The notes under the pieces are model-generated. The model had not been told where the DNA came from. It searched no databases and saw only the letters and a list, made by a program, of their open reading frames with translations. Made by a program: the position numbers and the translations under genes. Below, piece by piece: positions 13,578 to 58,126 of a stretch of 58,543 nt of DNA. Within the stretch, counting starts at the first letter, position 1. Each line of letters starts with the position of its first letter. The DNA lies in contig SKZO01000263.1 of the NCBI GenBank assembly GCA_007127335.1, positions 1-58,543 of the forward strand, written 5' to 3'. The stretch is from Spirochaetales bacterium. GTDB lineage: Bacteria; Spirochaetota; Spirochaetia; DSM-27196; SLST01.

Positions 13578-13627
13578 GGCGGGTGGAGCCTCACCATGCG
13601 GTGAGGCTCCTTGCGATTGGAGGCAGC

Positions 13628-13936
13628 ATGGCTAACGACAGGATTCGGGTTCGACTTCGAGGCTTTGATACTGAGCTTGTAGACCAGAGTGCGAAGTCTA
13701 TCGTGCAGACGGTCCAGAAGTCGGGCGCCAGGGTGTCCGGCCCGATTCCGTTGCCCACGCGCATCAACAAGTTCACTGTGCTGCGGTCTCCGCATGTGAA
13801 CAAGAAGGCGCGTGAGCAGTTCGAGATGCGCACGCACAAGCGGTTGATCGATATCATGGAGCCGACGCCGGCGGTCATGGATGCGCTTATGAAGCTCGAG
13901 CTGCCGGCGGGAGTCGACGTCGAGATCAAGCAATAG
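13628..13936 (+). CDS. rpsJ: 30S ribosomal protein S10
   Basis: [32 protein letters not shown]; ATG 13628 follows GGAGG. Confidence 0.99.
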
Positions 13937-13969
13937 GGCCGTTCGTGGCTCGGCGGTACAGGAAGACAA

Positions 13970-14596
13970 ATGCTTGGGTTGATTGGAAAGAAAGTAGGCA
14001 TGACGCAGATCTTCAACGACTACGGAGAGCTCATGCCGGTCACCGTGATCAGGATAGAGCCGAATCTCGTCGTTGATCGACGTACCGTCGAGCGGAACGG
14101 GTACGATGCCGTCGTGCTTGGCGCCTCTGATGCCAAGCCGTCACGTCTGACTGCCCCGGTGCTCGGCCAGTACAAGAAGAATGATCTGACGCCGAAGCGG
14201 CGCATGGTAGAGATGAGGGATTTTGATCGTGAGTGCGCGATCGGAGACACGCTCGGCGTGGAGGTCTTCGAGAATTCCGTCTTCGTCGATGTCACGGGGA
14301 CTTCGAAGGGGAAGGGCTACCAGGGCGTGATGAAGCGTCATGGTTTCGGCGGCGGACGCAAGACGCACGGCAGCAAGTTCCACCGCGCAGGCGGTTCGAC
14401 TGGTATGGCCGCCTGGCCGTCAAAGGTTCAGAAGGGCACGAAGATGGCCGGCCGCATGGGCGGGGTACAGCGGACTGCTCAGAACCTTCGGATCGTGAGT
14501 ATCGACGCGGAGCGGCAGATGTTGCTCGTGAACGGGGCTATCCCCGGGGCGCGTGACGGTTACGTGATCGTTCAGACCGCCAGGAAGAAGGGTTAG
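13970..14596 (+). CDS. rplC: 50S ribosomal protein L3
   Basis: [25 protein letters not shown]. Confidence 0.98.
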
Positions 14597-40367: not shown

Positions 40368-40405
40368 GAGATATCGCACAAAGACACGGAAAGCAAGGCC
40401 AAAGG

Positions 40406-41515
40406 ACGCAGCCGCTCGTTCTCTTCACCGGTGGGGGGACCGCCGGACACGTCTACCCCGGGCTTGCCGTCGCGGAAAGCCTTGCCGAACGGCTGCCCTT
40501 CGAGGCGGCATGGGTGGGCGGCACTACCGGTATGGAGAGACGAATCGTCGGCGGGCGCATACCTTACTACGGTATTCCAACGGGTAAGCTGCGCCGCTAC
40601 TTCTCGTTCGAGAACCTCCGGGATCTCTTTCGGGTCGCCGCGGGGATCGTGCGTGCGTGGGCGCTCGTTCGCGGGCTCAGACCCGACGTTCTCTTCTCCA
40701 AGGGGGGGTTCGTGAGTGTCCCGCCGGTCATCGCGGCGAAGTTGCTCGGGGTGCCCGTTGTCAGTCATGAGAGCGACGCCGACCCCGGGCTTGCGACTCG
40801 CATCAATGCCCGTTTTTCGGATCAGATGTGTGTGGCGTACGAGTCTACGAGACGGTGCTTTCACAGACGGTACCGGAACCGCGTTACGGTTACCGGGAAC
40901 CCCCTGCGGAACGAAATACTGCGGGGAAACAGAGTCGACGGGTTACGGTTTCTCGGGTTCTCGGTCACTGATCCCCGGCCGGTAGTCCTCTTTCTTGGCG
41001 GCAGTCTTGGAGCACGGCAGATTAACGAGCTCGTCGAGCAACTGCTGCCGGCGATCGGCTCTACGTGGCGGGTCGTGCACCAGACCGGCACTACCCATCG
41101 CGCCGGGATTCGTCGCGACGATCACTACGCGGCCTCATACTTCGGTCCGGAGCTACCGGATATCCTCGCGGCTGCCGATCTCGTGGTCTGCCGCGCCGGC
41201 GCTTCCACCCTTTGGGAAGTGGCCGTGCTCGGGATCCCGATGCTGCTCGTTCCCCTTGCCGGAGGGTCCCGGGGCGATCAGATCCGGAATGCCGCAGTCT
41301 TCGCCCGCGCCGGCGCGGCGGTATCCCTTCATTCGTCGGAGACACTGGCCGGCGACGCCACAGCGTGGCTGGCCCGGTACGCCTGCGATAAGGATCAGAT
41401 GCAGAGGATGGGCGAGCGCGCGCGAGCGCTTGTCCGTTCTGATGCGGCAGATCGAATTGCTGACATTATCATCGGGTGCCTTGGATCTGTACCCGCATTT
41501 TCGAGGGGGGCCTGA
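40406..41515 (+). CDS. murG: MurG glycosyltransferase (true start unresolved, no canonical start codon)
   Basis: FTGGGTAGHVYPG lies in frame upstream of the ORF-track start. Also contains PTGKLRRYFS, FSKGGFVSVP, HESD, GNPLR, GGSLGA, CRAGAST. Confidence 0.93.
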   Translation, partial: TQPLVLFTGGGTAGHVYPGLAVAESLAERLPFEAAWVGGTTGMERRIVGGRIPYYGIPTGKLRRYFSFENLRDLFRVAAGIVRAWALVRGLRPDVLFSKGGFVSVPPVIAAKLLGVPVVSHESDADPGLATRINARFSDQMCVAYESTRRCFHRRYRNRVTVTGNPLRNEILRGNRVDGLRFLGFSVTDPRPVVLFLGGSLGARQINELVEQLLPAIGSTWRVVHQTGTTHRAGIRRDDHYAASYFGPELPDILAAADLVVCRAGASTLWEVAVLGIPMLLVPLAGGSRGDQIRNAAVFARAGAAVSLHSSETLAGDATAWLARYACDKDQMQRMGERARALVRSDAADRIADIIIGCLGSVPAFSRGA

Positions 41516-42003
41516 TGCAGTTCGCCGGCATCGATATCGTGTTTGCCATAATCGTAGTGATTCTGGCTTTCAGGGCTGCGATACGCGGGTTCGTGAAGGA
41601 ACTGATGGGAACCGCAGCGCTCTTCCTCGGGATCGTCATCGCCGTCCTCTTCAGTGGTCTCGTGGCGCAGGCCATCGACGAGTTCATCGGACCGATGATC
41701 TGGAGTCAGATCATCGCGTTCCTCGGGCTCTTTCTCGTCGTGTATCTCCTCGTGAAGCTGTTTGAGGGCGGTTTGAACCGGATGATCGAACGAGTCCATG
41801 CGGACAAGCTCGACCACGCCCTGGGGTTTTTCCTGGGCATCGCCGAGGGGCTCGTCGTCGTGTTCGTGATACTCCTGCTCGTACAGATCCAACCGTTCTT
41901 CGAGCCTCAGACGCTGATCGAAGGGAGCCTCTTCGCCCGTCTCATGGCTCCATTCATGCCGTTGATCGCAGATTTCCTTGCGACGGGGCGACTGAATGTT
42001 TGA
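41515..42003 (+). CDS. cvpA: CvpA family membrane protein
   Basis: IDIV...RGFVKEL, DHALGFFLGIAEG; four TM helices. Confidence 0.9.
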   Translation: MQFAGIDIVFAIIVVILAFRAAIRGFVKELMGTAALFLGIVIAVLFSGLVAQAIDEFIGPMIWSQIIAFLGLFLVVYLLVKLFEGGLNRMIERVHADKLDHALGFFLGIAEGLVVVFVILLLVQIQPFFEPQTLIEGSLFARLMAPFMPLIADFLATGRLNV

Positions 42004-43189
42004 GAACATCATAGGGCAGGAGCCTGTCATCAGTCGATTGATGACTGAAGTGGGTGCCGGGATCCTTCCTCCGACGCTTCTGTTTCACGGTCCCGACTAC
42101 TCGGGCAAGAGCTCCACGGCGCTGGAGTTGGCACGTGTACTGACCTGTACCGGGAATGAACCATCGGTACCGTGGGGATGCAAGTGCCGAAGCTGTCTGC
42201 AGCAGCGTCACCTGTTGCACCCGGATACGCTCCTGCTCGGAGGCAGGTACTTCAGCCGGGAGATAGCCGTCGCGGTCACGGCCCTGAAACGCGACAAACG
42301 CGTGGCTCTGCGATACCTCCTCGAACGTTCGATCCGCAAACTCACGCGTCGCTTCGACCCGGTGCTCTGGGACGGCGAGGAGAGCCGCATCAAGAAGGCA
42401 GAACCGTTGATCGCGGAGCTCGAGGAGCGCCTGTATCCCTACCTTCCTGACGGTGATCTTCCGGACGACCGTCATTACGTCGGCGGTCTTGATGCAATCA
42501 CCGCGGTCTGCGACAAGTTGGCTGCAGTCCAGCCCCTCGACGCAGTTCCAGTGCACGTGGTGCGGCGTCTTTCGCACTGGTCTCACCTCGCCTCCGCCGG
42601 GCCTGCGAAGATAGCGATCATCGAGAACATCGACCGTCTGCACGAGTCTTCAAGGAACGCGCTGTTGAAAACCCTCGAGGAGCCGCCTCATGGGGTGTAC
42701 TTCGTGCTGACGACCCAACGGCGTGGTGCGGTGATGCAGACGATTCTCTCGCGTGCGAGAGCGTACGGTTTCGCGACAAGGGACGCCGGACAGAGCAGGT
42801 TGGTGATCGAGCGCATCTTTCGTGATACGGCAACGAGCAGTGCGAGTATACGGGATTACTTCATCAGCCTCGATGGGCGCGGGCTGCGCCCGCTTGCCGA
42901 GCGATTCCTCGAGAGCTGCCTTACAGGAGACGACATCGAGCTGTCGCTGCTTGATGAGATCGCCCAGACAATCGCGTCGCTCGGCGCCGGCGAAGGGTTT
43001 CGTTACTTTCTAGAGGAGTTGGGAGATCTCATGCGAGCGATGCTGCGATCGGGTGGTGCGGTTCAGCCGAGGATGCTCGAAGTCTGGCGGTCGGCGCTGA
43101 GACGCGCCGCCGTGCGGGTGGACGCGTACAATATCGCCGTTTCGCGGGCGCTCGAAGGTCTCTACTACACCATGCGGCGAACGGCCTGA
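41996..43189 (+). CDS. DNA polymerase III delta'-like (HolB/DnaX family) protein
   Basis: FENIIGQ, LLFHGPDYSGKS, CKCRSC, NALLKTLEEPP. Confidence 0.85.
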   Translation: MFENIIGQEPVISRLMTEVGAGILPPTLLFHGPDYSGKSSTALELARVLTCTGNEPSVPWGCKCRSCLQQRHLLHPDTLLLGGRYFSREIAVAVTALKRDKRVALRYLLERSIRKLTRRFDPVLWDGEESRIKKAEPLIAELEERLYPYLPDGDLPDDRHYVGGLDAITAVCDKLAAVQPLDAVPVHVVRRLSHWSHLASAGPAKIAIIENIDRLHESSRNALLKTLEEPPHGVYFVLTTQRRGAVMQTILSRARAYGFATRDAGQSRLVIERIFRDTATSSASIRDYFISLDGRGLRPLAERFLESCLTGDDIELSLLDEIAQTIASLGAGEGFRYFLEELGDLMRAMLRSGGAVQPRMLEVWRSALRRAAVRVDAYNIAVSRALEGLYYTMRRTA

Positions 43190-43195
43190 GGGAAG

Positions 43196-44371
43196 ATGAA
43201 AAAGTTCGTAGAGCGGGCGCTGAAGAAGTTTGAGAAGCTCGATACCGAACAGGTGCGGATGCTCATTCGCGATCTCGCGAACGAGCAGGGCCTTGTTGCC
43301 GCCGTCCTCGACTCGCTGAACGACGGGTTGATGGTTGCAGACAGCGAGCATCTGCTCGTGCTCTACAACAAGGCGTGCGAGCGTCTCGTTCCCATGAGTC
43401 TACGGGAGGGCACCGATCAGCCGGTCTGGCAGACGATCGCAGACGACCAGATCGCTCGTTTCATCGAGCGGACCCTCATTGGCCAGGAGTCGGTCGCGGA
43501 CCGCGAGTTCACGTTCGACCGGGGATCCAAGACACGAACCCTCGCGTTCACCGTCACTCCGCTTCTTCGCGACGGAACCATCACCGGATCCATCGTGCGC
43601 ATAGACGATGTGTCAGAAAAACGGAGTCGGGAAGCGCGGCTTCGACGAGCCGAGAGTCTCGCCAGTCTCACGACACTCGCGGCAGGCGTCGCTCACGAGA
43701 TCAAGAATCCTCTGGGATCGATCGGGATCCACATGCAGCTCATCCAGAAGACCCTGGCGGCGATCGATGACCAACGTGCCGGTACGATTCGTGAGTACGT
43801 CGACGTCGTGAACGAGGAGGTCGAGCGGTTGAACCGGATCGTCGTCGACTTCCTGTTCGCTGTACGGCCAATGGACACGACGCTTGACGATCAGGAGCTG
43901 AATCCAATCGTGAAGGAGCTGCTCGATTTCGTGCGCTTCGAGCTCGAGGAAGCCGGCATATCAATCGTTGAGGACTTCGCCGACGACCTGCCGGAGCTGC
44001 GACTCGACGAGAAATACCTCAAGCAGGCGGTGCTCAACATCGTCAAGAACGCGATCTCCGCGATGCCGGAAGGTGGCGTGTTGACCGTCACGACGCGGCA
44101 GAGCGGAGATGACGTCCTGCTTCGGATCAGCGACACCGGCGAGGGGATGAGCGAAGAGGTAATGGAGAAGATCTTCGATCCGTACTTCACGACCAGAGAC
44201 TTTGGATCTGGAATCGGACTGACTCTCGTGTACAAGATCGTCAAGGAGCATATGGGTGATATATCGGTCGTCAGTCAGGAGGGCCGGGGGAGTGCTTTCA
44301 CGATCATGCTGCCCGTTCCACAGCGTGAACAGCATCTGTTGAGCTGGCAGGGAGACGGCGATGAAGTTTAA
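43196..44371 (+). CDS. Cytoplasmic PAS-containing sensor histidine kinase (Hk2/NtrB-like)
   Basis: PAS-like LDSLNDG...YNKACERL; H-box AHEIKNPL; N-box LNIVKNA; DTGEG; FDPYF; GSGIGL. No TM segment. Confidence 0.95.
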   Translation: MKKFVERALKKFEKLDTEQVRMLIRDLANEQGLVAAVLDSLNDGLMVADSEHLLVLYNKACERLVPMSLREGTDQPVWQTIADDQIARFIERTLIGQESVADREFTFDRGSKTRTLAFTVTPLLRDGTITGSIVRIDDVSEKRSREARLRRAESLASLTTLAAGVAHEIKNPLGSIGIHMQLIQKTLAAIDDQRAGTIREYVDVVNEEVERLNRIVVDFLFAVRPMDTTLDDQELNPIVKELLDFVRFELEEAGISIVEDFADDLPELRLDEKYLKQAVLNIVKNAISAMPEGGVLTVTTRQSGDDVLLRISDTGEGMSEEVMEKIFDPYFTTRDFGSGIGLTLVYKIVKEHMGDISVVSQEGRGSAFTIMLPVPQREQHLLSWQGDGDEV

Positions 44372-45710
44372 CGTGCTGGTGGTCGACGACGAGAAGAATA
44401 TCCGTGCCGGGCTCGGGAAAGCCATCGAGCTCGACGGTCACAACGTCGTACTCGCCGAAGACGGCCGGCAGGCGCTTGATCTGCTCGAGCACGAGGAGAT
44501 CGACCTGATCATCGCAGACCTCAAGATGCCGCGTGTGTCCGGTGAGGAGTTGCTGCGTCGCGTCGTGGAGTCGTATCCCACGCTTCCGGTGATCATCCTC
44601 ACCGGACACGGGACGATCGAGACCGCAGTCCAGGCGATGCGCGACGGCGCCTACGACTTCCTCACGAAGCCCGTCAATCTCGATCGACTCAGCCTGCTCG
44701 TAAAGCGTGCGTTGTCGACTCGTGAGCTCGCCCTGCAGCATCGAGCGCTGCAGGAGGAGCTTCAGCAGAAGCGCCAGTTCGCCAGTATCATCGGCAAGAG
44801 CGCAGAGATGAAACGCATCTTCGATGTCGTACGGCAGGTTGCTCCCACGAGAGCCTCCGTCCTGATCACCGGCGAAAGCGGGGTGGGCAAGGAACTCATC
44901 GCCGACGCGGTCCACCAGATGTCGAACAGAAACGACAAGCCCTTCGTGAAGGTCCACTGCGCCGCACTGAGCGAAAGCCTACTCGAGAGTGAGTTGTTCG
45001 GGCACGAGAAGGGAGCATTCACGGGCGCCGTTGCCAGGAAGCGCGGTCGCTTCGAGCTCGCGCATCTTGGCAGTATCTTCCTCGACGAGATCGGTGAGAT
45101 AGCCCCGAGCGTCCAGATCAAGATTCTGCGCGTGCTCCAGGAGAAGACCTTCGAGCGCGTGGGGGGGGAGCAGACCCTCGAGGTGGACACGCGGATCATC
45201 TCCGCCACCAACAAGGATCTCAAACAGGAGATCGAGCGGGGCACATTCCGGGAGGATCTCTTCTATCGCCTGAACGTCGTGAACATCCACATCCCACCGC
45301 TGCGTGAACGAAAGGAGGACATTCCGATTCTCGTGTCAGCCTTCATCAAGGAGTTTGCGACCGAGAACGAGAAGCCGGTCGAAGGAATCGACGCCAAGGC
45401 GAGGGCGCTCCTGTACACGTACAGCTGGCCGGGCAACGTGCGGGAACTGCGCAACTCCATCGAGAGCGCCGTGGTCATGGCGAAAGGGCCGATCATCACC
45501 CCTGACGACCTGCCGCCCTCCGTCGCTTCGGATACCGAGAGCAACTACGTTCGGGTCCAGCTCGGGGCCACGCTCGCCGACGCGGAGAAGGAACTCATAC
45601 GGGCCAATCTGGCCGCCAACAACGGCAACAAGAGCCGCACGGCGGAGGTCCTTGGCATTGGCCGGAAGACGCTCCACCGGAAACTGGCCGAGTACGGCCT
45701 CGAGGCGTAG
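44361..45710 (+). CDS. Sigma-54-dependent response regulator (Rrp2/NtrC-like)
   Basis: Receiver VVDDE...DLKMP; Walker A GESGVGKE; GAFTGA; FLDEIGE; WPGNVRELRN; Fis-type HTH. Confidence 0.97.
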   Translation: MKFNVLVVDDEKNIRAGLGKAIELDGHNVVLAEDGRQALDLLEHEEIDLIIADLKMPRVSGEELLRRVVESYPTLPVIILTGHGTIETAVQAMRDGAYDFLTKPVNLDRLSLLVKRALSTRELALQHRALQEELQQKRQFASIIGKSAEMKRIFDVVRQVAPTRASVLITGESGVGKELIADAVHQMSNRNDKPFVKVHCAALSESLLESELFGHEKGAFTGAVARKRGRFELAHLGSIFLDEIGEIAPSVQIKILRVLQEKTFERVGGEQTLEVDTRIISATNKDLKQEIERGTFREDLFYRLNVVNIHIPPLRERKEDIPILVSAFIKEFATENEKPVEGIDAKARALLYTYSWPGNVRELRNSIESAVVMAKGPIITPDDLPPSVASDTESNYVRVQLGATLADAEKELIRANLAANNGNKSRTAEVLGIGRKTLHRKLAEYGLEA

Positions 45711-53492: not shown

Positions 53493-53521
53493 AATATACC
53501 GGTGCGGTGGGCCGCGGTCAA
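53493..53521 (-). promoter_or_regulatory. Sigma-70 promoter of groES
   Basis: On the minus strand: TTGACC, 17-nt spacer, TATATT. Confidence 0.8.
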
Positions 53522-53620
53522 GATTTCGCCGCATTGAAGCAGTCGGTGGGCACAGTCGGTGGGCACTCAGGTGCTTTACTGTCGGCAGCCGCGGGAGTAC
53601 GTTTCGTTCCGGGGAAAACC

Positions 53621-54319
53621 GTGCAGTCATGGCTCATCGACTACCAGCGTGGGCTTCGGTGGCTCAGGCGCCATCGACCGCTCCGGGCGCTCGCCTACCT
53701 CGAACGTGCGCTACTCGCCATTCCTACGGACAGGCTTCGCTCGCCGCGCTCGAGCTCCCGGAGAGCGGACCTCGCGCGCCTGTTCTTCTACCTCGGACTC
53801 GGGTTCCGGAAGGCGGGGATGCGCAACCGGGCGATCGGGAGCTGGGTCGAGTCGGCGCGGCTCGACAAGCGCGGGAGGGTTCGACGGAAGCTCTTTCGCG
53901 TCACGAACCGGTACGGTATGGCGCGTCAGGACAGCGCCGAGATCGATGATCAGCAGGCTTTCTACGGCATACAGCTCTCCCGGTACATTCGGTCGAAACA
54001 GTCACACCGGCTCGGGACGCGGGCGGAAATCGACATGATCGCCGAGCTCATCGACGAGCACTGGGTCAGACTCCGCGAGACCGCGGATCTCCCGCGCCTG
54101 ACCTGCGGGCAGAAGCTCGAGCTCTTCCGGAGCATCGTGATCGTCTTCCCCTTTCTCACGGTCCCGCACGATCTGAAGACTGAGGATGTTGCGGTGGACT
54201 TCTCTCATGGCCGCAGGATTACCGACGGCGATCGGTGTGTCTGCGGAAGCGGACTCCCGTACCGGTTGTGTCACGGACGCACACCGGGAGCCGATGAGGC
54301 GCTGATTGGGAAATTCTGA
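53621..54319 (+). CDS. TPR-like protein with a C-terminal SEC-C zinc motif
   Basis: ALAYLERAL...FFYLGLGFRKAG...AIGSW (TPR-like) and CVCGSGLPYRLCHG (SEC-C). Start uncertain (53507-53621). Confidence 0.75.
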   Translation: MQSWLIDYQRGLRWLRRHRPLRALAYLERALLAIPTDRLRSPRSSSRRADLARLFFYLGLGFRKAGMRNRAIGSWVESARLDKRGRVRRKLFRVTNRYGMARQDSAEIDDQQAFYGIQLSRYIRSKQSHRLGTRAEIDMIAELIDEHWVRLRETADLPRLTCGQKLELFRSIVIVFPFLTVPHDLKTEDVAVDFSHGRRITDGDRCVCGSGLPYRLCHGRTPGADEALIGKF

Positions 54320-54453
54320 CACAGTTCCTCGGCTACACTGGTCAACTGGTTCAATATGACTCATCCTCTTCAGAGCGCCCGGGCAGAGCATCGTTCCGTG
54401 CTTCTAAGTCTTTCCTCTGTTTGGAAATAGCAGCTGGCGATATTGGAGTGTTT

Positions 54454-54469
54454 TGGCACGCCCCTTGCT
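54454..54469 (+). promoter_or_regulatory. Sigma-54 (-24/-12) promoter
   Basis: TGGCACGCCCCTTGCT matches TGGCACG-N4-TTGCW, with GG and GC exactly 10 nt apart. It is intergenic and ends 21 nt before the ATG. Confidence 0.85.
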
Positions 54470-54490
54470 TATTCAGAGACGGAGGAAGCA

Positions 54491-55369
54491 ATGGCAGCAG
54501 CTACACCACGGACCCACACGTACACCCGGTCGTCCGGAGATGACGAGAACGTACTCTCCATGTACCTGAAAGAGATCAACAAGATACCGCTTCTCACGCG
54601 CGAGGAAGAGAACCGGTATGCGACTCTCGCCGAACAGGGCGACGAGCTCGCAAAACACAAGCTCGTCCAGGCGAATCTGCGGTTCGTGGTAAACGTGGCG
54701 AAGAAGTACCAGAACCAGGGGCTGCCGCTCTCGGATCTCATCAGCGAGGGAAACATAGGGCTGATGAACGCGATCGAGCGGTTCGATGTCAGCAAGGGGT
54801 ATCACTTCATCTCATACGCTGTCTGGTGGATTCGCCAGGCCATCCTCAAGGCCATCTGCGAGAAGTCACGGATGATCCGGCTCCCGCTGAACCGCGCCAA
54901 TGAGCTTGTCCAGATCGAGAAGGTTCGCAAAGAGATTCAGGGTCGACATGGCGAAGAGGCTGAGATCAAGAAGATCGCCGAGACGCTCAACATGAACCAG
55001 GAGCACGTTGCGGATCTGATCAACATTTCCCGCGAGCTCATCTCACTCGAGACACCGGTCTACAACGAGAAGGACTCGAGTATCCTGGGTGATTTCGTCG
55101 AGGACGAAGGGTACCAGGCTCCGGACTCACACGTCGTGGAGAAGGCTCTCAAAGACGACATCAACTCCATACTCGCGACGCTCACCAGGAAGGAAAGTGA
55201 GATCGTCCAGTACCGATTCGGTCTCAACGGCCGCAGCCCGCTATCGCTCAAAGAGATCGGAGACCGGTACAATCTGACCAAGGAGCGAATCAGGCAGATA
55301 GAGAAGAAGGCGCTGAAGCGCCTGCAGCACCCCAGTCGGGTCGGTCGGCTCGAGGCGTACATTGCATGA
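54491..55369 (+). CDS. Alternative sigma-70-family sigma factor (group 2/RpoS-like, no region 1.1)
   Basis: Region 1.2 MYLKEINKIPLL; region 2 ANLRFVV, DLISEGNIGL, FISYAVWWIRQAI; region 4 LKEIG...KERIRQIE. ATG follows GGAGG. Confidence 0.93.
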   Translation: MAAATPRTHTYTRSSGDDENVLSMYLKEINKIPLLTREEENRYATLAEQGDELAKHKLVQANLRFVVNVAKKYQNQGLPLSDLISEGNIGLMNAIERFDVSKGYHFISYAVWWIRQAILKAICEKSRMIRLPLNRANELVQIEKVRKEIQGRHGEEAEIKKIAETLNMNQEHVADLINISRELISLETPVYNEKDSSILGDFVEDEGYQAPDSHVVEKALKDDINSILATLTRKESEIVQYRFGLNGRSPLSLKEIGDRYNLTKERIRQIEKKALKRLQHPSRVGRLEAYIA

Positions 55370-55391
55370 GTGCAGGCAGCTTGTCGTTACG

Positions 55392-55421
55392 TTGACACTG
55401 TGTGTCATTTCTCCGTAATCT
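55392..55421 (+). promoter_or_regulatory. Putative sigma-70 promoter of ppdK with an overlapping palindrome
   Basis: TTGACA, 18-nt spacer, TAATCT; TGACAC-N3-GTGTCA at 55393-55407. Confidence 0.6.
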
Positions 55422-55471
55422 AGCACTCGACGTTTTTCCTTTCACAAAAAACCATTGGGGGTTTACCAAGC

Positions 55472-58126
<2,655 letters not shown>

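Follow-up and report, generated by a model that had tools for sequence, protein, structure and literature searches.

Sigma-54-Dependent Sigma Factor Genes in Described Systems

In Borrelia burgdorferi, the agent of Lyme disease, the RpoN-RpoS relay acts as the central switch for virulence, and a longer, sigma-70-dependent rpoS transcript is also known; to our knowledge, Borrelia has a single established sigma-54 promoter. Here we describe a 58,543-nt stretch of a Spirochaetales genome (contig SKZO01000263.1, assembly GCA_007127335.1; hereafter the window), in which a -24/-12 element at 54454-54469 directly precedes the gene of a short sigma-70-family factor, hereafter the window sigma. The window is contig C303 of assembly G000, which has 3.86 Mb, 64% G + C and 93% completeness. 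An earlier note on this DNA had read the locus as a Borrelia-type Rrp2-RpoN-RpoS cascade ending in an RpoS-like factor; the promoter, rpoN and the orthology of Hk2 and Rrp2 stood up to the analysis, but the identity of the sigma factor as RpoS did not. We consider it likely that 54454-54469 is a functional RpoN promoter with an NtrC-type enhancer layout and that the gene behind it, which is not rpoS, depends on an ATP-driven enhancer-binding protein (EBP).

The closest described system is the Hk2-Rrp2/RpoN/RpoS pathway of B. burgdorferi (PMC1976401; PMC3037356; PMC2940757). There, too, a -24/-12 element lies directly 5′ of a short sigma-70-family gene, Hk2 and Rrp2 are orthologous to those of the window and encoded in the same operon, and one sigma factor switches on another. 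The output sigma of Borrelia is, however, a paralogue different from the window sigma, and its counterpart in this genome is encoded on another contig (C389). Rrp2 of B. burgdorferi activates rpoS without an enhancer, Hk2 is dispensable, and the purified Rrp2 did not bind DNA within 238 bp upstream of rpoS (PMC1976401), whereas three phased, enhancer-like dyads precede the window sigma gene. Borrelia has one EBP, whereas the window genome has seven, together with at least five good sigma-54 promoters. A search for dyads of the window type (TGTGTCA) in two Borrelia-type genomes returned one site with two mismatches in each, which was no better than a reversed-pattern control.

In enterobacteria, an NtrC oligomer forms on dyads near -140 and -108 of glnAp2 and contacts the sigma-54 holoenzyme by looping. 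The textbook arrangement of an NtrC-type enhancer combines phased dyads, 100-190 nt upstream of the promoter, with an intermediate element. The window locus and glnAp2 are alike in having dyads in helical phase 100-190 nt upstream of the -24/-12 element and an activator composed of receiver, AAA+ and Fis-type helix-turn-helix (HTH) domains. The window dyad, TGTGTCA-N3-TGACACA, differs in sequence from NtrC dyads, and the target is a sigma gene rather than a nitrogen-assimilation gene; glnA of this genome has a separate predicted sigma-54 promoter (C159).

The PAS kinase Hpk2 of Treponema denticola (TDE1970) reportedly autophosphorylates more strongly under anaerobic conditions, and Rrp2 (TDE1969) has been described as a protein that “remains unstudied” (PMC12070737). 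The window Hk2 is likewise a soluble PAS kinase, and the window Rrp2 shares 62% identity with that of the T. denticola-group genome G055. The 311-aa sigma factor of a T. pallidum-type genome (G128), which we take to be T. pallidum TP1012/O83976, falls within the clade of the window sigma. Proteome analysis of T. pallidum has detected TP1012 (PMC5015957). In a broad comparison of sigma-54 across bacteria, control of sigma factors was mentioned only for Borrelia RpoS and enterobacterial sigma-32 (PMC3162934). In the literature we searched, the RpoN-RpoS relay was not discussed outside Borrelia, and nothing was found on sigma-54 promoters of sigma genes in Treponema or free-living spirochaetes; a short note on sigma-N in small genomes (Studholme and Buck, 2000) may mention T. 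pallidum.

A Conserved -24/-12 Element Precedes the Sigma Gene

The element at 54454-54469 matched TGGCAC-N5-TTGCW at 16 of 16 positions, as the earlier note had claimed, with TGGCAC at 54454-54459 and TTGCT at 54465-54469. The -24 GG (54455-54456) and the -12 GC (54467-54468) are separated by exactly 10 nt, and the element starts 37 nt ahead of ATG 54491. It was the sole match in the window, both in the exact scan (0.04 expected from 100 shuffles) and with one mismatch allowed, which agrees with the earlier remark that no other full intergenic match had been noticed in the window. From the GG and GC positions, transcription is predicted to start near 54480, leaving the sigma mRNA a predicted leader of approximately 11 nt. 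At the position equivalent to the Shine-Dalgarno sequence (Table 1), GGAGG, AGGAG or a near variant was present in most orthologous loci. ATG 54491, rather than TTG 54443, is the sensible start of the sigma gene, and the coordinates previously given for the Shine-Dalgarno sequence, the ATG and a 292-aa protein without region 1.1 all agree with ours. The TTG 54443 start was rejected: its 308-aa open reading frame (ORF) spans the motif, as had been pointed out, and would translate the promoter, and the orthologues begin after the Shine-Dalgarno sequence.

Each of the 40 related genomes sampled, which span 11 families of one order, contained an orthologue of the window sigma, and the identity of 73-97% indicates strong constraint across the order. 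The order was identified as Treponematales through the relatives Breznakiella homolactica (72% identity) and Rectinema subterraneum (68% identity) and through Treponema metagenome-assembled genomes from termites and rumen. A scan of orthologous upstream regions for GG-N10-GC had been proposed in the earlier note. The motif [T/A/C]GGCA[C/T]-N5-[T/A]TGC[A/T] stood shortly 5′ of a Shine-Dalgarno sequence and start codon in 30/30 Treponematales loci from 11 families, and GG-N10-GC was present in 18/19 wider spirochaete loci, including those of Breznakiella, Rectinema, Sphaerochaeta and gut Treponema. A -24/-12 element also lay 5′ of the orthologues in the T. pallidum-type genome (1,139,633 bp; TGGCATGATATTTGCT upstream of the 311-aa sigma gene), the T. 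denticola group (TGGCATAGTTTTTGCT; L124) and the two reduced genomes G160 and G089. It was missing at 57/57 non-spirochaete homologue loci and at each of the five RpoD genes tested. Because the element is kept across spirochaetes and is absent from non-spirochaete homologues and RpoD genes, neither chance nor coding constraint can, on this comparison, explain the conservation pattern.

The genome contains an intact rpoN at C88:19403-20743, which scored 402 bits against a cut-off of 277; the earlier note had asked for this check, and had correctly stated that the gene is not in the window. Seven EBP genes with strong AAA+ matches were also identified, one of them in the window. The exact consensus occurred six times genome-wide, against approximately three expected from base composition (our own estimate), and 5/6 matches were correctly oriented and lay just 5′ of a start codon. 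The genes behind these five are glnA, a lipoprotein gene, the gene of a 338-aa protein, and the window and C389 sigma genes (Table 1).

TABLE 1. Coordinates of the window features and of related loci elsewhere in the genome. Positions without a contig prefix refer to the window.
Feature	Position	Strand	Evidence and remarks
Sigma-54 promoter TGGCACGCCCCTTGCT (TGGCAC-N5-TTGCT)	54454-54469	+	Sequence match and conservation in orthologous loci
Shine-Dalgarno sequence GGAGG	54481-54485	+	5 nt ahead of ATG 54491
292-aa sigma-70-family factor	54491-55369	+	Regions 1.2-4.2, no region 1.1; family models, tree and synteny
Proximal element TAAGT-N15-AAATA (consensus TAAnT-N15-AnTTA)	54405-54429	+	49-52 nt 5′ of TGG
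Proximal enhancer-like palindrome TGGTTCAATATGACTCA	54347-54363	+	-107
Middle enhancer-like palindrome TGGGAAATTCTGACACA	54307-54323	+	-147; overlaps stop codon of upstream gene (54317-54319)
Distal enhancer-like palindrome TGTGTCACGGACGCACA	54267-54283	+	-187 from the -24 TGG; 11/14 match to TG[GT]GTCA-N3-TGAC[AC]CA
Upstream gene, 270 aa, C-terminal SEC-C zinc-binding motif	53507-54319	+	ORF and domain search; carries or abuts two enhancer-like sites
Rrp2 orthologue (receiver, sigma-54 AAA+, Fis-type HTH)	44361-45710	+	GAFTGA intact; 55% identity over 450 aa to Borrelia Rrp2
Hk2 orthologue (soluble PAS-HisKA-HATPase histidine kinase)	43196-44371	+	Pfam; 32% identity over 382 aa to the Borrelia kinase adjoining rrp2
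murG, cvpA and holB-like gene (front of hk2-rrp2 operon)	40514-43189	+	Pfam; collinear with Borrelia locus L143
C389 sigma gene, 281 aa, RpoS-type	C389:13658-14500 (13621-14500 with promoter; locus L177)		Strict sigma-54 promoter TGGCACGCGCCTTGCT, 37 nt before ATG
Sigma-54 promoter candidate, glnA	C159:2768	-	Well-placed match
Sigma-54 promoter candidate, lipoprotein gene	C178:8070	+	Well-placed match
Sigma-54 promoter candidate, 338-aa protein (first 85 residues without Pfam match)	C17:10743	-	Well-placed match
Sigma-54 promoter candidate, 216-aa membrane protein	C68:8949	+	Well-placed match
Sigma-54 promoter candidate, exported protein	C257:1171	-	Well-placed match

Enhancer-Like Palindromes and a Proximal Element

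When the upstream regions of the orthologues were anchored on the -24 element, two further conserved features emerged, namely 17-bp dyads and a proximal element. The window contains three dyads of the form TG[GT]GTCA-N3-TGAC[AC]CA at 40-bp spacing. The distal dyad sits within the 3′ end of the SEC-C gene, exactly 40 bp from the middle dyad, and many orthologous loci have an equivalent of the latter between -146 and -150. The last codons and the stop codon of the SEC-C gene overlap the middle dyad, so coding constraint may account for part of its conservation in close relatives.

A dyad pair at 38-42 bp spacing was present in 24/30 Treponematales loci and 14/22 wider loci, compared with 0/29 C389-type sigma loci and approximately none of the shuffles. 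Within this genome, phased dyads together with a -24/-12 element were found at this locus only; elsewhere, the search for the 17-bp dyad returned weak pairs on C34, C106 and C288, none of which had a convincing -24/-12 partner. The combination of dyads, intermediate element and -24/-12 element is typical of an NtrC-type enhancer layout, which makes the dyads putative activator sites.

The position of the proximal element and its 15-nt spacer are shared by most of the 30 window-type (L014-L043) and 30 C389-type (L177-L206) promoters. Its mean match was 7.7-8.0 of 10 positions, compared with 6.1-6.7 in coding and shuffled controls, and it may be the site of a bending protein or of a shared co-regulator. 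An element resembling TAAnT-N15-AnTTA may also precede the TGGCATGGATATTGCT promoter on C68.

The Hk2/Rrp2 Pair and the Candidate Activator

The Hk2/Rrp2-like pair that had been noticed about 9 kb upstream of the sigma gene consists of true orthologues of the Borrelia proteins in a collinear operon (Table 1); rrp2 ends 8.7 kb upstream of the sigma-54 promoter. The top match of Borrelia Rrp2 in the window genome is the window EBP, and each is the best hit of the other. The order murG-cvpA-holB-like-hk2-rrp2 is identical on a Borrelia-type chromosome (G145; 917 kb), and each of the six comparison genomes examined has an Rrp2 orthologue (55-63% identity). In at least 23 genomes from at least 10 Treponematales families, the sigma gene is found downstream of rrp2 in the same orientation; the two genes are 4-10 kb apart except in one genome, with a gap of 25 kb.

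Genomes with few EBPs are relevant to the choice of activator. G160 (1.5 Mb, 99% complete) has rpoN and a single EBP, which is the Rrp2 orthologue. Of the two sigma types it has just the window one, whose gene is still preceded by a -24/-12 element and by two dyads at 40-bp spacing. In G089, the Rrp2 orthologue is the sole complete EBP, and the dyad pair and promoter are also retained. TGTGTCA-type dyads occur at two more places in G160: a pair 39 bp apart lies approximately 90-145 nt 5′ of a perfect -24/-12 element of an Hsp20 gene (G160:C6:13943-14104; L208), and a single dyad lies across the start codon of murG in the hk2-rrp2 operon (G160:C2:50414-50430; L207), which may indicate autoregulation of the operon. 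Because G160 has one EBP and one dyad type at both located sigma-54 promoters, the simplest reading is that Rrp2 binds TGTGTCA-type dyads. These comparisons tip the balance toward the Rrp2 orthologue as the activator of the 54454 promoter in the window genome as well. Phosphorylated Rrp2, partnered with Hk2, would oligomerize on the dyads, loop to the closed sigma-54 complex and open it, and the newly made window sigma would then redirect core RNA polymerase to another regulon. Our comparison also nominates the T. denticola-group sigma gene L124 as a target of Rrp2.

Several observations count against this assignment. Nothing in the window genome ties the dyads directly to Rrp2, one of its seven EBPs, and the upstream region of the window's own murG has just a weak 9/14 dyad at 40372-40388, leaving the hk2-rrp2 operon without a convincing site of this type. 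The linkage of rrp2 with the sigma gene within the order may have been inherited as gene order rather than maintained by selection, and T. pallidum, the T. denticola group, G160 and G089 lack it. A real sigma-54 promoter could be served by one of the six other EBPs, all seven having strong AAA+ matches, and the failure of purified Borrelia Rrp2 to bind DNA near rpoS (PMC1976401) would agree with such an arrangement. We nevertheless regard it as unlikely, since G160 and G089 keep the dyad pair and promoter with Rrp2 as their only complete EBP, the dyads of G160 also mark the Hsp20 promoter and the start of the rrp2 operon, and the linkage extends across the order. A sigma-54 promoter was also looked for at the Hsp20 homologue of the window genome, by analogy with G160, and was absent.

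Identity of the Window Sigma Factor

Sigma-70 regions 1.2, 2, 3 and 4 were found in the window sigma, whereas region 1.1 was absent. Its scores remained below the NCBIfam cut-offs of the proteobacterial RpoS models TIGR02394 (267.1 vs. 378.7 bits) and NF004207 (254.7 vs. 394 bits) and of the RpoD model (301 vs. 555 bits). Because a separate 584-aa RpoD is encoded at C329, the window sigma is, to judge from gene content, not the housekeeping or primary sigma factor. In maximum-likelihood trees of 61 and then 70 sequences, it was placed in a spirochaete clade of its own with the T. pallidum 311-aa sigma and the T. denticola-group orthologue. Region 3 of the T. pallidum-type orthologue (L144; G128:C1:1104663-1105529) has diverged strongly and contains an insertion, and the amino-acid composition of this protein is unusual. 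The clade was absent from the two Borrelia-type genomes examined, and the window-type sigma has evidently been lost from Borrelia.

The closest relatives outside the spirochaetes are short sigma-A-like factors of Bacteroidota, Gemmatimonadota and Calditrichota (45-48% identity), which form a joint clade with the window-type sigmas (support 100/97). The short primary-like sigma-A of Bacteroidota likewise lacks region 1.1, and the region-2 signatures NLRFVV, FISYAVWW and RLPLNR are common to it and the window sigma (compared with L074 and L096). Unlike the window sigma gene, those of Bacteroidota and relatives have no sigma-54 promoter (0/57). The T440-equivalent residue of the window sigma is Leu. 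The shared signatures and clade suggest that its promoter specificity may differ from that of RpoD. A paralogue with 61-64% identity to the window sigma is present in sister genomes (L162 in G009:C66, with equivalents in G001, G002 and G005-G014) and is preceded by an TGGCACGACTCTTGCA element of its own and by paired dyads at -103 and -143; the 93%-complete window assembly yielded no copy of it.

The tree with Borrelia RpoS that the earlier note had proposed as a check did not support an RpoS-like identity. Borrelia RpoS clustered with 12 C389-type sequences (support 100/97) and not with the window sigma. Borrelia RpoS and the C389 sigma are reciprocal best hits with 41% identity, whereas the window sigma has 35% identity and was not among the top hits. 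The genes flanking Borrelia rpoS (113, 303 and 338 aa) are collinear with C389:13226-16652 and not with the window. Forcing Borrelia RpoS into the window clade was disfavoured in the approximately unbiased (AU) test (delta log-likelihood 37, p = 0.069), a value that gives no formal rejection at 0.05 and comes from a comparison involving long branches. Because tree support, reciprocal hits and synteny agree, the AU test alone falling short, we conclude from these comparisons that the window sigma is not the orthologue of Borrelia RpoS and that the C389 sigma takes that role.

The opposite view, in which the window sigma is the RpoS orthologue and the same Rrp2-RpoN-RpoS cascade operates in a free-living spirochaete, can draw on the 35% identity, on the short form of both factors without region 1.1, on the -24/-12 element before both genes, on their position approximately 9 kb or less from the hk2-rrp2 operon in their own genomes, and on the p value of the AU test. 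The 100/97 clade, the reciprocal best hit and the three flanking genes in the same order at C389, together with the absence of the window clade from the two Borrelia-type genomes, make it very improbable.

Two Sigma Genes With Predicted Sigma-54 Promoters

The C389 sigma gene has a sigma-54 promoter of its own (Table 1). Promoters of this type, TGGCA[C/T]-N5-[T/C]TGC[A/T/G], occur at a fixed 34-41 nt before the start in 30/30 relatives and have their own dyads, GT[A/G]TAC-N4-6-GTGCAC, near -108 and -143. As judged from promoter conservation, sigma-54 controls two sigma genes in this genome. Because the distal dyads of the two promoters differ, the window and C389 sigma genes are probably served by two different activators. 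T. pallidum has only the window-type sigma, and Borrelia only the RpoS-type.

Two RpoS-type loci showed departures. Upstream of the RpoS-type gene of the T. denticola group (L136; G055:C1:2680387-2681178, minus strand), the sequence TAGCACGCTTTTTGCT has AG in place of the -24 GG, which may reflect loss of sigma-54 dependence in this lineage. In the Borrelia-type genome G145, matches to the rpoN model (C1:472400-473567) were fragmentary, interrupted by in-frame stops and all below the cut-off, and rpoS nevertheless has TGGCATGATTTTTGCA upstream. The rpoN signal could come from a decayed gene or from a divergent, AT-rich gene that the search handled poorly.

A few points speak against a functional RpoN promoter with an NtrC-type layout at 54454-54469. 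The predicted 11-nt leader is unusually short. No terminator-like site was found on the plus strand between the 270-aa upstream gene and the sigma gene, and read-through from this same-strand gene may occur. The T. pallidum-type orthologue locus has no recognizable dyads despite its retained -24/-12 element. In favour of the RpoN promoter, a scan of 54100-55600 for sigma-70-like promoters returned none. That the motif is unused, with the gene transcribed by read-through or from an unrecognized sigma-70-type promoter and the conserved sequence having another role or being a relic, would fit the missing terminator and the longer sigma-70-dependent transcript of Borrelia rpoS, but is highly implausible given that GG, GC and the 10-nt spacing are kept across families with otherwise unalignable flanks, that the motif co-occurs with rpoN and has phased upstream dyads, and that all non-spirochaete homologues lack it.

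Evolution and Significance of the Relay

The earlier note had suggested that a relay from sigma-54 to a second sigma factor is older and more widespread in spirochaetes than the Borrelia case, and the conserved promoters of both sigma families support this suggestion. As far as promoter sequences can tell, placing a second sigma factor under sigma-54 is an old and widespread arrangement among spirochaetes. Two distinct sigma genes are predicted to be under sigma-54, each with its own putative enhancer; one branch persists in the syphilis agent and the other in Borrelia.

We tentatively propose, as a possibility that may well prove wrong, that throughout Spirochaetia Rrp2 acts, by way of an enhancer, on the window sigma clade as its ancestral target, that the RpoS-type sigma was originally fired by another activator, and that Borrelia rewired Rrp2 onto rpoS. 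Rrp2 would reach window-type sigma genes through the tandem TGTGTCA-N3-TGACACA dyads, and the RpoS-type sigma would first have been fired by an activator reading the GT[AG]TAC-N4-6-GTGCAC dyads. Borrelia would then have lost both the window-type sigma and the second activator while retaining Rrp2, which would act from solution at the orphaned rpoS promoter. If true, this rewiring would solve the old puzzle of why Borrelia Rrp2 has an apparently functional DNA-binding domain without needing an enhancer or binding near rpoS (PMC1976401), and Rrp2 of T. denticola and T. pallidum would gain a concrete first target.

As for the role of the window-type sigma system, the same putative enhancer also precedes the Hsp20 gene in G160, which hints at a stress or redox response. 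The comparison described here provides testable targets for Hk2/Rrp2 of T. denticola and T. pallidum and suggests an evolutionary explanation for the enhancer-independent activation seen in Borrelia.

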